DNA of 64,000 nt, taken from positions 52,039-116,038 of the forward strand of contig JADLGO010000052.1 in assembly GCA_020849275.1 (NCBI GenBank), read 5' to 3'. The notes beneath the pieces were generated by a model. It saw only the letters and a list, made by a program, of their open reading frames with translations. It had not been told where the DNA came from and ran no database searches. This DNA comes from Chthonomonadales bacterium. GTDB lineage: Bacteria; Armatimonadota; Chthonomonadetes; Chthonomonadales; CAJBBX01. Numbering within the stretch: position 1 is the stretch's first letter; the number at the start of each line of letters is the position of its first letter. Of this stretch, positions 45,671 through 50,798 are shown piece by piece. The position numbers and the translations under genes were made by a program.

Positions 45671-46155
45671 GCGCCGGCCGCGCGCGGCGCGGGGTCGCGT
45701 GGCTCCGTGCGGGCTGGGCTGCCTGCGGCGCCGCGCTGCTCGTCGTGCTCGCGTGGAGCGCGGCGATCGGCCGATCGTCGCGCCCGACGCTGGACTGGCA
45801 GCCCGACCTCCCGGCCGCGCTGAGGCTGGCCGGCGCGGCCCGCCTGCCCGTGCTGGTCGTCTTCGGCGCGGACTGGTGCCCCGGCTGCGGCGAGCTCGAG
45901 CGCCGCGTGCTGCCAACCGCCCGGGTCCGGCGCGCCGCGCGCGGAGTGGCCTGCGCAAAGGTCGATGTCGACCGCGACGCGGAGGCCGCCCGCCGCCATC
46001 TAGTCGACCGCCTGCCAACGGTACTGGTGCTGGATGCCGGCGGTGAGGAGGTCTGGCGCCATGCCGGGGTCCCGCGCGCCGATGATCTGGCCAGCGCGCT
46101 CGAGCGGGCACGCACCGGGCACCGTGCGCCGCCCGACGCAGCGGCCGCGCGGTAA
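45667..46155 (+). CDS. membrane-anchored thioredoxin-family protein
   Basis: N-terminal TM, VFGADWCPGCGELE (WCxxC) active site. GTG start overlaps the upstream stop. Confidence 0.75.
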   Translation: MSAGRARRGVAWLRAGWAACGAALLVVLAWSAAIGRSSRPTLDWQPDLPAALRLAGAARLPVLVVFGADWCPGCGELERRVLPTARVRRAARGVACAKVDVDRDAEAARRHLVDRLPTVLVLDAGGEEVWRHAGVPRADDLASALERARTGHRAPPDAAAAR

Positions 46156-46166
46156 CGCGCGGCCGC
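46141..46166. terminator. perfect 11-bp GC hairpin with GTAA loop spanning the thioredoxin stop codon, between convergent genes
   Basis: GCGGCCGCGCG-gtaa-CGCGCGGCCGC. No U-tract. Confidence 0.3.
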
Positions 46167-46201
46167 CTGAGGTGCGTATTAGCGATGGATGGCTTGGAGG
46201 C

Positions 46202-46726
46202 TCAGTCGCGGAAGTCGGAGAAGGCAGGCAGATAGTCGCGCCACACCTCGTTCTTGCGCCCGACCAGGTACTTCGTCAGGCTGATGTACGGCACGTACCG
46301 GGGCCTCTTCGGGGGCCTGACGAGCTTCATGCTGATCTGGTGCAGGAGCTTGTCGCTTTTCCTCATGTTACACCGACGACAGGCCGTCACCAGGTTGTCC
46401 CACGCCGTGACACCGCCTAGCCGTCTGGGCACGACGTGATCGATGGTAAGGTCCTTGGCCATCTGCCCGCAATACTGGCACATGTAGCCGTCCCGCGCGA
46501 ACACCGTCCGGCGCGAGAGCCTCAGTTCGGGAAGAGGCCTTCTGACGTGGTGGCGAAGCCTAACCACCGACGGGAGCGGGAACTCGCACGCGAGCGCGGC
46601 GAGCGAGGACGCGTGCGCGTGGAGCACCTCCGCCTTTCCCATATAGACCATCACGAGCGCTCGTCGAACATGACACACGTTGAGAGGCTCAAAGTCGCTG
46701 TTGAGCACGAGCACTTCCTGGTTCAT
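46202..46726 (-). CDS. small PLMP-domain + HNH nuclease (IshB-like; commonly annotated just as HNH endonuclease)
   Basis: N-terminus VLVLNSDFEPLNVCHVRRALVMVYMGKAEVL resembles the IscB PLMP domain as I remember it (..[26 protein letters not shown]). HNH core is CQYCGQ...LTIDHVVPRRLGG...DNLVTACRRCNMRK. 174 aa, no RuvC segments. Confidence 0.85.
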   Translation of the reverse strand: MNQEVLVLNSDFEPLNVCHVRRALVMVYMGKAEVLHAHASSLAALACEFPLPSVVRLRHHVRRPLPELRLSRRTVFARDGYMCQYCGQMAKDLTIDHVVPRRLGGVTAWDNLVTACRRCNMRKSDKLLHQISMKLVRPPKRPRYVPYISLTKYLVGRKNEVWRDYLPAFSDFRD

Positions 46727-46774
46727 GTGCTTTCCCGATAGCTGAACGCACAGTCGCGCGGGTCACGGCGCCGG

Positions 46775-46816
46775 CAAAACAAAACCCGCCCCGGGCCGGC
46801 AGGCACAGAGCGGGTT
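46775..46816 (-). terminator. intrinsic-terminator-like hairpin + U-rich tail ending the upstream RNA
   Basis: The minus strand reads AACCCGC-(20 nt)-GCGGGUU UUGUUUUG. Lies 48 nt upstream of the HNH ATG. Confidence 0.45.
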
Positions 46817-47024
46817 CAGGCGCCACGCGCAGGGTGGAATAGGGCGTACTGGTGAAGGCATTGCCGAGCATCGATCGATCGCGACAGACGTTGCATGGCC
46901 TGGGGGCAGGGAGTTTGCTGCCGCCCGATCGCCGCACCCTCGCCCCCTGTGTCCGCCGGTATCCGGCGCATGAGACTGGTCACGCTAGACCCCCGTCGAT
47001 GCCTGGATCGATTGAGCGAATCCG
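46775..47024 (-). ncRNA. candidate ~250-nt structured non-coding RNA (or long cis-regulatory leader) upstream of the PLMP-HNH gene
   Basis: Bounded by a perfect sigma70 promoter and the terminator above. Contains GC-rich local hairpins: CGCCGG-aua-CCGGCG at 46954..46968 and GGGGGCGAGGG...CCCUGCCCCC at 46902..46947. The only track ORF on this strand here (46689..46937) is Arg/Gly/Pro-rich and overlaps the HNH start out of frame. The 5' end is inferred from the -10 position only. Confidence 0.5.
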
Positions 47025-47030
47025 GTAGTA

Positions 47031-47059
47031 ATTATAGCGAACAGGTGTGCTCGTGTCAA
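47031..47059 (-). promoter_or_regulatory. perfect consensus sigma70 promoter TTGACA-17-TATAAT driving the candidate RNA / HNH gene
   Basis: The minus strand reads cTTGACAcgagcacacctgttcgcTATAATtac. Confidence 0.7.
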
Positions 47060-47099
47060 GCCGCGTTACGGCCGACCTCGGCCCTTGCGGGGCTCTCGA

Positions 47100-47129
47100 T
47101 TGACAACGCCGATCCCCCCGCGATATACT
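47100..47129 (+). promoter_or_regulatory. near-consensus sigma70 promoter TTGACA-18-TATACT of the ABC-transporter operon (divergent from the RNA promoter)
   Basis: cgaTTGACAacgccgatccccccgcgaTATACTaca. Confidence 0.6.
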
Positions 47130-47139
47130 ACATGGCGTC

Positions 47140-47172
47140 AGCGGGGCCGGCCACCGGGCCGCCGCTTTTTTT
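47140..47172 (+). terminator. strong hairpin + U7 located immediately after the predicted TSS in the ABC-operon leader (attenuator or 5' stabiliser)
   Basis: AGCGGGGCCGG-cca-CCGGGCCGCCGCU followed by a run of seven T in total, ending 36 nt before the ATG at 47209. Confidence 0.5.
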
Positions 47173-47208
47173 GCGTGGCGCGTCCACTCACCCAAGGAGG
47201 TCTCCTCT

Positions 47209-48141
47209 ATGGCTGCTGCCGTCAGCATCCAGGGCCTTACAAAGAAATACCTCGACGTCTTCAGCAAGACCGAGATCACCGCGGTCGACCAGTTGAGCCT
47301 CGACGTTGAGGAGGGCGAGATCTTCGGTTTCCTCGGGCGGAACGGCGCCGGCAAGACCACCACCATCAAGATGCTCCTCGGCCTCATCTTCGCCACCGAA
47401 GGCACCGCCACCGTCCTTGGCAAGCCCATCGGAGACATCGACGTCAAGGCGCAGATCAGCTACCTCCCCGAGGAGGCCTACTTCTACGAGTCGATGAGCG
47501 GTTGGGACATCCTGGACTTCTACGGTCGCCTCTTCCGCATTTCCGAGCCGACGCGCTCCGAGCGGATCAAGAAGGCACTGGACGACGTCTACCTGGACCC
47601 CAAGGCCTGGCGGCGCCCACTGCGTGGTTACTCGAAAGGCATGCGCCAGCGCATCGGCATCGCGCAGGCCCTGATCAACGACCCCAAGCTGCTCCTCCTC
47701 GACGAGCCGACCTCCGGGCTGGACCCGATCGCCCACGCCGAGCTTCGCGACATCGTCGCCAACGTCGGGCGCCAGGGCAAGACGGTGTTCCTCAGCTCCC
47801 ATCAGCTTCCCGACGTCGAGCTCGTTTGCTCGCGCGTCTCGATCATCCACCACGGCAAGCTGCTGGCGGTCGGCAAGATCAGCGAGTTGACCGCTGGCGA
47901 TAAGGTGGAGATCCGGGCATCCGGCGTGACCAACGGCGTTGTCGAGCAGATTCGGGGCATCGCGGGGCCCGTCGAGCAGCGCGATGGCCAGATCCGCATC
48001 GCCTCGGCCGATCCAGAGCATGTGAGCGGCGTGATCGACCTGGTGCGCGGCGCCAAGGGCAGCGTGCTGGCCGTCGTACCGCACAAGCGGACCCTTGAGG
48101 AAGTCTTCGTCGACGTCGTCATGAAGGCAGGAGGTGAGTAG
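47209..48141 (+). CDS. ABC transporter ATP-binding protein
   Basis: Walker A GRNGAGKTT, signature YSKGMRQRIGIA, Walker B LLLLDEPTSGLD. AAGGAGG RBS. Confidence 0.9.
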   Translation: MAAAVSIQGLTKKYLDVFSKTEITAVDQLSLDVEEGEIFGFLGRNGAGKTTTIKMLLGLIFATEGTATVLGKPIGDIDVKAQISYLPEEAYFYESMSGWDILDFYGRLFRISEPTRSERIKKALDDVYLDPKAWRRPLRGYSKGMRQRIGIAQALINDPKLLLLDEPTSGLDPIAHAELRDIVANVGRQGKTVFLSSHQLPDVELVCSRVSIIHHGKLLAVGKISELTAGDKVEIRASGVTNGVVEQIRGIAGPVEQRDGQIRIASADPEHVSGVIDLVRGAKGSVLAVVPHKRTLEEVFVDVVMKAGGE

Positions 48142-50526: not shown

Positions 50527-50798
50527 GATCGTGCTAGATGGGGAGCTAGCGGTGCCCTGTACCCGCAATCCGCTATAGCGGGGTCGAACTCCCTGCTCCC
50601 GGTGTGGTCTCATTCCGGTTCAACAACCCGAGGCGGTGTTGATGGGCGGGCTCCGCGCATCGGACGGCGTTCGAACCGTGTCAGGGCCGGAAGGCAGCAG
50701 CACTAAGGACGACCGTTCGAGTGCCGCGTGACCACCTGGCCGGAGCCGTTACGGACTGCTTCCGGGCGTGAGGCGCATCAAAAGCGGGGTGCACGATC
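50527..50798 (+). ncRNA. ffs: signal recognition particle RNA, long Bacillus-type with Alu domain
   Basis: Helix-8 core GUCAGGGCCGGAAGGCAGCAGC at 50679..50700. The 5' segment GUGCUAGAUGGGGAGCUAGCGGUGCCCUGUACCCGCAAUCCGCUAUAGCGGGGUCGAACUCCC matches my memory of the B. subtilis scRNA Alu domain (GCGGUGCCCUGUACCUGCAAUCCGCUCUAGCAGGGCCGAAUCCC). Terminal pairing GAUCGUGC (50527..) with GCACGAUC (..50798). Classic position upstream of dnaX. Confidence 0.85.

Follow-up and report, generated by a model that had tools for sequence, protein, structure and literature searches.

A conserved small open reading frame and terminator precede an IshB-like nuclease gene in Armatimonadota and may form an attenuator-type operon leader

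The IshB-like nuclease

The window, a 64-kb stretch of DNA (G+C 69.7%) from a Chthonomonadales bacterium (contig JADLGO010000052.1, positions 52,039 to 116,038), carries on its minus strand, to which all coordinates below refer unless a plus sign is given, the gene of a small HNH nuclease and, directly upstream of it, a unit composed of a consensus promoter, a small open reading frame (ORF), an intrinsic terminator and a short spacer. A first-pass annotation, made from the sequence alone, had taken the promoter-to-terminator part for a structured RNA partner of the nuclease; comparison with related loci suggests instead a small translated gene, which may act as the attenuating leader of a two-gene operon.

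The nuclease gene (46202..46726) encodes 174 amino acids (aa) and includes the N-terminal and HNH segments that had been quoted from it before. Its HNH core (residues about 72-131, 46334..46513) is matched by the Pfam families HNH_5 (5.7e-15) and HNH (6.2e-14) and contains the zinc cysteines C83/C86/C116/C119 as well as D96-H97..N111..N120, all of which are invariant across 37 homologues. By sequence, this domain is closest to those of IscB and Cas9d, the nearest solved chains being IscB, Cas9d and small HNH nickases (TbaIscB, 9k30, at E 5e-10), and the best NCBIfam model for the protein is guided_IscB, which reaches 66 bits in two stretches, far under its cut-off of 175. No match to RuvC was obtained with the nuclease, in which 174 aa leave no room for such a domain.

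As a fold search with the whole protein is dominated by the HNH domain, the N-terminal domain (residues 1-62, 46541..46726) was modelled separately. In the AlphaFold2 (AF2) model, a confident one, it adopts a beta-beta-alpha-beta-beta order (predicted local distance difference test, pLDDT, 86.7), and its top matches in the PDB are the PLMP domains of OgeuIscB (7xht_A, TMq 0.63, root-mean-square deviation 2.1 A over 60 columns) and DtIsrB (8dmb_P, TMq 0.64), together with those of HfmIscB, TbaIscB and OrufIscB (entries 9k2z, 9k30 and 9nvu_P); N-terminal domains of translation initiation factor IF3 rank next after IscB and IsrB (TMq 0.40-0.47, probability 0.6-0.77). The match by sequence is weak: residues 5-37 align in register with positions 1-33 of guided_IscB (E 0.1) and Pfam RRXRR (E 0.11), an alignment also obtained in relatives with the first 70 residues alone (E about 0.1), and the position of the tetrad reads PLNV instead of the PLMP of IshB and IscB. 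The PLMP+HNH architecture that the first-pass annotation had proposed is confirmed by the HNH matches and the predicted fold of the N-domain, which returns the IscB/IsrB PLMP domains where profiles give an in-register alignment at E about 0.1. With about 175 aa, a PLMP-type domain followed by HNH and no RuvC, the protein is IshB-like, a label given by architecture, and close in size to the ~180 aa of IshB.

Besides these two domains, the protein has a C-terminal tail (residues 132-174, 46202..46330, ..PRYVPYISLTKYLxGRKNEVWRDYLP..), which is strongly conserved, modelled at low confidence and without any family match, and for which no counterpart was identified in IshB or IscB. Nuclease identity amounts to 70-78% across Chthonomonadales, and full-length relatives are found in many 50%-identity clusters and several phyla. 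No named relative on the Cas9/IscB lineage is smaller than the IshB-type proteins, and the literature searched, up to 2026, demonstrates no function for IshB.

A conserved promoter-to-terminator unit

The putative sigma-70-type promoter upstream of the nuclease gene (47031..47059), which had been described before as perfect, indeed matches the consensus at 12/12 positions, with TTGACA at 47059..47054, a spacer of 17 nucleotides (nt) and TATAAT at 47036..47031, and would start transcription near 47024. Promoters were scanned for with the sigma-70 consensus alone at a threshold of 9 of 12, at which shuffles of the 2.1-kb region, used as the control, yield 0.1 promoter-like sites. In the predicted intrinsic terminator (46776..46815), ACCCGC (46815..46810) pairs with GCGGGT (46789..46784) around further inner pairs, and the tail TTTTGTTTT runs to 46776; the motif occurs once in the whole window and ends, as had been noted, 48 nt before the nuclease ATG at 46726. 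The spacer (46727..46775), as the 5' untranslated region of the nuclease gene, contains a purine-rich GGGAAAG (46736..46730) 3 nt before the ATG, and the sigma-70 consensus scan finds no promoter of at least 9/12 between terminator and ATG in the window or its relatives.

Conservation of the unit was surveyed in 89 non-redundant Armatimonadota loci, each of which offers 350 nt or more of sequence before the nuclease gene; the related sequences all come from metagenome assemblies. The terminator, first picked out in many loci by BLASTN and nhmmer searches of the intergenic region against 80 genomic loci, is present as a CCCGC..GCGGG-U-tract element in 70/89 loci, and in 68 of these 70 a promoter of at least 10/12 lies 116-371 nt upstream of it. 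The lower stem CCCGC..GCGGG is nearly invariant among related loci, and pairing of the terminator is kept at 98.5%, with compensatory changes, a score reached by 1/500 shuffles. The comparison of upstream regions, which the first-pass annotation had called for, hence finds the promoter-to-terminator unit conserved in front of the nuclease. The gene on the far side of the unit varies, being an ABC (ATP-binding cassette) transporter in the nearest relatives of the window, an NFACT/RqcH-like gene in 38 loci and others elsewhere, and since this gene differs between loci while the unit stays, the unit travels with the nuclease gene.

The same survey bears on the view that the small ORF and its terminator are an independent gene, a stable neighbour by chance, and that the nuclease is transcribed from an unrecognised promoter of its own. 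The scan does not detect promoters outside the sigma-70 consensus type, and in some loci spacers of 120-160 nt offer room for a promoter. On the other hand, adjacency, strand and short spacing (median 68 nt in relatives, from the terminator end to the nuclease ATG) are kept in about 70 loci of several orders with changing far-side genes, and spacers down to 27-50 nt leave little promoter room, so that we consider chance neighbourhood improbable.

In the window, the neighbours of the locus are of housekeeping type, namely the divergent ABC transporter operon, a thioredoxin-like gene, a GFO/IDH/MocA oxidoreductase and a FolC-type ligase, and no transposase, in line with the previous description, is found among the neighbouring genes. 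The same housekeeping-type neighbours recur in related genomes and every recovered locus holds a single copy, which is not the pattern of an IS200/IS605-type mobile element and accords with the earlier view of a chromosomal copy. While IshB and IscB are known as transposon proteins, the nuclease described here is encoded outside an insertion sequence, once per locus and in conserved contexts, and an IshB-like protein appears across a phylum as the product of a highly conserved chromosomal gene.

With respect to the spacer, a purine-rich GGAAAGG(A) is conserved before the nuclease ATG in most loci (46730..46736 in the window), at a distance that varies between 3-5 nt in the window and some other loci and 17-22 nt in many; no alternative in-frame start between this motif and the ATG is seen by eye in L001, L015 and L028, three of the related loci. 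Just downstream of the terminator, GTGACCCGCGCG (46755..46766) is a near-repeat of the context of the terminator 5' arm, CTGAACCCGCTC, and its place reads GTAACCCGCGCG in a 98%-identical relative. The longer spacers of L002, L007, L009 and L061 are taken up by short tandem repeats (GATTTTG/GATTTTA, TGTAAAA, GGATTGT, GGTGGTT).

The small leader ORF and its peptide

Between promoter and terminator, where about 250 nt without a credible ORF had been reported, the window contains an ORF of 55 codons (46816..46983), and homologous small ORFs occupy the equivalent place in dozens of loci. The ORF starts with GTG at 46983, has GGGGG 6 nt upstream (46994..46990) and encodes MTSLMRRIPADTGGEGAAIGRQQTPCPQAMQRLSRSIDARQCLHQYALFHPARGA; an alternative start is the ATG at 46971 (51 codons). 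Its stop codon TGA (46818..46816) directly abuts the base of the terminator stem at A46815. Almost every unit has an ORF of 42-81 codons that extends from near the promoter to the terminator, and in 48/52 loci scored the stop codon falls within -5..+32 nt, counted from the first stem C (-3 in the window). In Armatimonadales-type loci an in-frame ATG follows the -10 box after 7-17 nt, so that the mRNA would be leaderless or nearly so.

Several comparative features argue that the ORF is translated. Indels between close relatives measure 3, 3, 3, 3, 3 and 18 nt, with additional events of 12 and 18 nt, and none breaks the frame; variable columns are distributed 41/51/71 over codon positions 1/2/3 (p = 0.014); of the codon changes between the ORFs of L001 and L003, 12 are synonymous and 9 non-synonymous; and the synonymous fraction of the proposed frame, 0.177, is the highest of the six, the others ranging from 0.078-0.140. 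Judged by indels, third-position bias, the six-frame test and the start codon near the predicted transcription start, the leader looks like a short translated ORF.

The predicted peptides share the core D-S/A-F/L-x-H-x-H-..-L/V-F/Y-H across related loci, which reads GFxMRGSxRLRMLADSFHHLHHYSVFH in Chthonomonadales and ERxEAGGDALRHRHALYHAHxH in Armatimonadales/Capsulimonadaceae. In the window, for which the core was aligned as ..D-x-x-x-x-L-H-x-Y/F-A/S-L/V-F-H, it corresponds to IDARQCLHQYALFHPARGA, with a 13-residue (39-nt) insertion upstream, and the window peptide is, as far as sequence can tell, a diverged member of this family of small ORFs. Leader peptides of relatives are rich in His and Cys, and most are distinctly His-rich (for example ..RHRHALYHAHAHRH.. 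and WHHHH); the window peptide has 2 His. Between the window and a 98%-identical metagenomic relative the ORF shows 5 differences, all of them non-synonymous and in the N-terminal half, and not one in the last 33 codons, nor does the terminator differ; outside the core, selection on the peptide seems to be weak. No Pfam or NCBIfam family matches the leader peptides (8 peptides), and a profile search of 5.8 billion predicted proteins returned 4 matches, of which the one looked up sits 95 nt upstream of the nuclease studied here; the family is essentially unannotated.

In some loci the ORF contains a tandem in-frame 18-nt unit, CATGCGCACCGCCATGCC, which codes for HAHRHA and occurs once in L125, twice in L138 and five times or more in L124. 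A sister clade (L042-L054, L131, L132), with nucleases 54-58% identical, does not have the His-rich ORF; a conserved TGGACNGACACGATAATACGYG is found instead, 100-195 nt before the nuclease ATG. One frame of this element reads WTDTIIR; in several of these loci it also forms a hairpin with an ATAATA loop, and it is followed by a different terminator, of the GGGTCYGC type.

Antitoxin-toxin operons build a dosage logic into their gene order, and colicin E7/E9 HNH DNases with their Im proteins, like type II toxin-antitoxin operons, are pairs of a nuclease and its inhibitor. Under the main and serious rival to an attenuator, the small ORF would encode a functional micro-protein that works with the nuclease, either as a His/Cys-rich metal-binding helper for the zinc/metal-dependent HNH site or as an inhibitor or immunity-like partner, and the terminator would mainly set a high peptide-to-nuclease ratio and sense nothing. 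The gene order resembles the antitoxin-toxin dosage logic, and the locus has in common with nuclease-inhibitor pairs a small protein gene and an HNH nuclease gene in one transcription unit, with an order and a terminator that favour an excess of the small product. The core is kept from Chthonomonadales to Capsulimonadaceae with conservative replacements and synonymous changes, the peptides are rich in His and Cys, the HAHRHA-coding repeat expands in frame, and in the 98% relative the last 33 codons are untouched next to a changed N-terminal half. However, over the same loci the peptide is about 20-35% identical as opposed to 65-78% for the nuclease, a poor conservation for one half of a pair; its length ranges from 42 to 81 aa, and the frame in which its C-terminal part meets the conserved terminator is not constant. 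The sister clade keeps the architecture with the different, WTDTIIR-coding element TGGACNGACACGATAATACGYG, and the window copy has lost its His-richness. Neither a recognised immunity nor an antitoxin family is found among the 8 peptides in Pfam or NCBIfam, nor is there a sequence match to such proteins, and 4 matches among 5.8 billion predicted proteins are few. Finally, toxin or immunity pairs are mobile and patchy in distribution, while the nuclease has a single copy per locus and keeps its contexts. A micro-protein partner is therefore, in our estimate, rather unlikely, yet it is the alternative with the strongest claim to attention.

Structured RNA and omega-RNA searches

The first-pass annotation had read several GC-rich hairpins as a structured RNA of ~250 nt and proposed a search for HEARO (RF02033). 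Neither HEARO nor any other Rfam family was found in 46000..47400, where E<=10 gives merely chance-level matches, and no Rfam family reaches its gathering threshold upstream of the nuclease in 16 related loci; the search works here, since the signal recognition particle (SRP) RNA of the window was recovered at 163 bits as a control, and an Rfam search of the whole window likewise places nothing at the nuclease locus. The 299-nt leader has a minimum free energy of -129 kcal/mol as compared with -130.2 +/- 5.8 for shuffles (z = +0.21), the opposite strand of the intergenic region folds at z = -0.06 against shuffles, and the sole helix predicted by RNAalifold on 37 aligned related units is the terminator. 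A structured RNA of this length thus finds no support beyond the terminator hairpin, and with no Rfam match, no excess folding and a conserved part that behaves as coding, an omega-RNA-like partner is unlikely. Abundant RNA genes such as 6S or transfer-messenger RNA (tmRNA), considered on account of the consensus promoter and strong terminator, were ruled out by the Rfam search and by the absence of conserved structure. Of the fallback that the first-pass annotation had offered, a riboswitch or attenuator leader, the attenuator comes close to the reading favoured here, whereas the riboswitch gives way to a stretch that is predicted to code for a peptide.

An RNA partner may also be conceived in a reduced form, with the transcript or its 3' hairpin as an omega-RNA analogue of the PLMP-HNH protein, the PLMP-type domain binding the terminal hairpin and the variable 5' part serving as guide or specificity element, possibly in a dual-function coding and non-coding molecule. 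The PLMP domain of IscB contacts, and thereby recognises, the terminal hairpins of omega RNA (PMC9640706), and the N-domain of the window nuclease is structurally PLMP-like. Like omega RNA, the unit directly precedes the nuclease ORF in the same orientation, measures about 250 nt and has a terminal hairpin near the ORF; it is independently promoted and terminated, conserved together with the nuclease, and the lower stem of its terminator is unusually constant in sequence whatever reading frame crosses it. In contrast to omega RNA and HEARO, it matches no covariance model in the window or the 16 relatives, lacks a multi-helix scaffold or pseudoknot as well as excess folding energy, and shows no conserved or covarying helix besides the terminator in the 37 units. 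It is predicted to code for a conserved peptide, with coding signatures 5' of the hairpin and a start codon conserved at the transcription start, and ends in a true U-tract terminator that is followed by a spacer and only then by the ORF. In IscB, most of the omega RNA is held by RuvC, bridge-helix and WED/TI parts (PMC9640706), none of which is present in the 174-aa protein, and a guide would have no transposon-homing rationale at a locus that is not mobile. Even in this reduced form, an RNA partner strikes us as very improbable. An IshB-like gene is found here with no accompanying omega-like structured RNA, and in most loci it comes after an unannotated small ORF with a strong promoter in front and a terminator at its end. 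As a caution, where a genome has 70% GC, an unannotated, GC-rich promoter-to-terminator stretch can be a small gene and not an RNA.

A leader ORF with a possible attenuator

The comparison across loci brings out the predicted promoter and terminator, the coding character of the small ORF between them and the linkage of all three to the nuclease gene. We give about an even chance to the reading that the two genes form an operon with a leader ORF and a built-in attenuator, and that the unit is not an RNA gene. A very strong promoter would drive a short leader ORF, 55 codons long in the window and translated, in most relatives into a His-rich peptide, and most transcripts would stop at the strong terminator and yield a short mRNA of about 250 nt. 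The terminator stands between the leader ORF and a nuclease gene for which the sigma-70 consensus scan finds no promoter, and because no promoter of its own is visible after the terminator, the nuclease gene, 48 nt on, would be expressed only from read-through transcripts. As the stop codon abuts the terminator stem, a ribosome that terminates there would sit on the 5' arm and hinder the hairpin, and read-through, hence nuclease dosage, is probably coupled to leader translation by a logic of the pyrBI type or the leader-peptide type; direction and signal of such a coupling are hypothetical.

The pyrBI and the his/trp leaders of enterobacteria are leader-ORF transcription attenuators. The window locus and its relatives share with them a short ORF at the 5' end of the operon, with little or no untranslated sequence before it in Armatimonadales-type loci, an intrinsic terminator ahead of the structural gene, the enrichment of one amino acid (His) in the peptides of most members and, with pyrBI, a leader reading frame that runs into the terminator. 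They differ in that no covariation-supported antiterminator is found, that the histidines are interspersed and in the window copy nearly absent, that the peptide motif is conserved beyond candidate regulatory codons and that the regulated gene is a nuclease and not a biosynthetic operon. A known regulatory layout, the attenuator-type operon leader, would here be attached to an uncharacterised nuclease family. Leaderless short ORFs, of the polycysteine type, attenuate downstream genes in mycobacteria (bioRxiv 10.1101/834739).

A number of points weigh against an attenuator. Promoter function, terminator efficiency and translation are deduced from sequence and comparison, and the spacer could hold a promoter that is not of the sigma-70 type. 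An amino-acid motif is conserved across orders, although leaders that act only via ribosome occupancy need none, and this points towards a functional peptide. As a candidate antiterminator, truncated-transcript folds and duplex searches indicated an upstream GCGGGTCA, which is complementary, at the level of the consensus, to TGACCCGC in the foot of the terminator stem. In a 17-sequence alignment, 73.5% of cells are paired for this combination as compared with 35-43% when it is slid; however, there is no covariation, as shuffled partners give 73.2% and 240/500 shuffles are as good, and the pairing is missing at the homologous place in the window. For these two reasons an antiterminator is not claimed, even if this pairing, of upstream GCGGG(TCA) with the terminator 5' arm, had looked compensatory by eye in L005, L010 and L014 before the formal count. 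A classical His-starvation attenuator was ruled out for the window copy, with 2 His in its peptide, and in most relatives the histidines are non-consecutive.

In the 38 Armatimonadales/Capsulimonadaceae-type loci (L015, L017-L019, L025-L032, L036-L041, L094-L097, L102-L108, L116-L127, L137, L138, L165, L166), a divergent gene for an NFACT_N/NFACT-R_1 protein, related to the ribosome quality control factor RqcH, lies about 330-540 nt upstream of the nuclease ATG on the opposite strand, an arrangement which persists where the NFACT gene shares merely 52-60% identity. The 64-kb window has no NFACT homologue, and no paper that names both RqcH and HNH endonuclease was found in the literature searched. 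Two further readings combine parts of those above and are speculative, with a low probability between them. The leader transcript might be both message and ligand, its 3' hairpin being bound by the PLMP-type domain for autoregulation or as a minimal RNA-protein nuclease; or, as suggested by the conserved divergent NFACT/RqcH-like neighbour in the 38 loci, the nuclease might act on stalled translation complexes, with the His-rich leader ORF as a stall sensor. Either of them, if true, would be the first function of the IshB branch outside transposons. Regarding the favoured operon with its leader ORF and attenuator, the leader unit, the lack of an omega-like structured RNA and the conserved contexts together point to a potentially dangerous nuclease whose dosage is tightly controlled, and to a role in the cell rather than in a transposon.

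Flanking elements

Downstream, between the convergent nuclease and thioredoxin-like genes, the GC-rich palindrome GCGGCCGCGCGGTAACGCGCGGCCGC (46140..46166, on either strand) is probably a hairpin at the 3' end shared by both; in Rfam it receives merely a chance-level match, to the hairpin part of BjrC68. On the other side of the unit, a divergent promoter TTGACA-18-TATACT (47100..47129, +) faces the ABC transporter and is immediately followed by a GC hairpin and a T7 run (about 47141..47172, +), a terminator-like element within the very short 5' leader of the ABC transporter, after which come an AAGGAGG ribosome site and the ABC-transporter ATG at 47209. An A7/hairpin at the matching position is also visible in L004 and L161. 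The Rfam search of the whole window places the large bacterial SRP RNA at 50529..50796 (+), with 163.5 bits.

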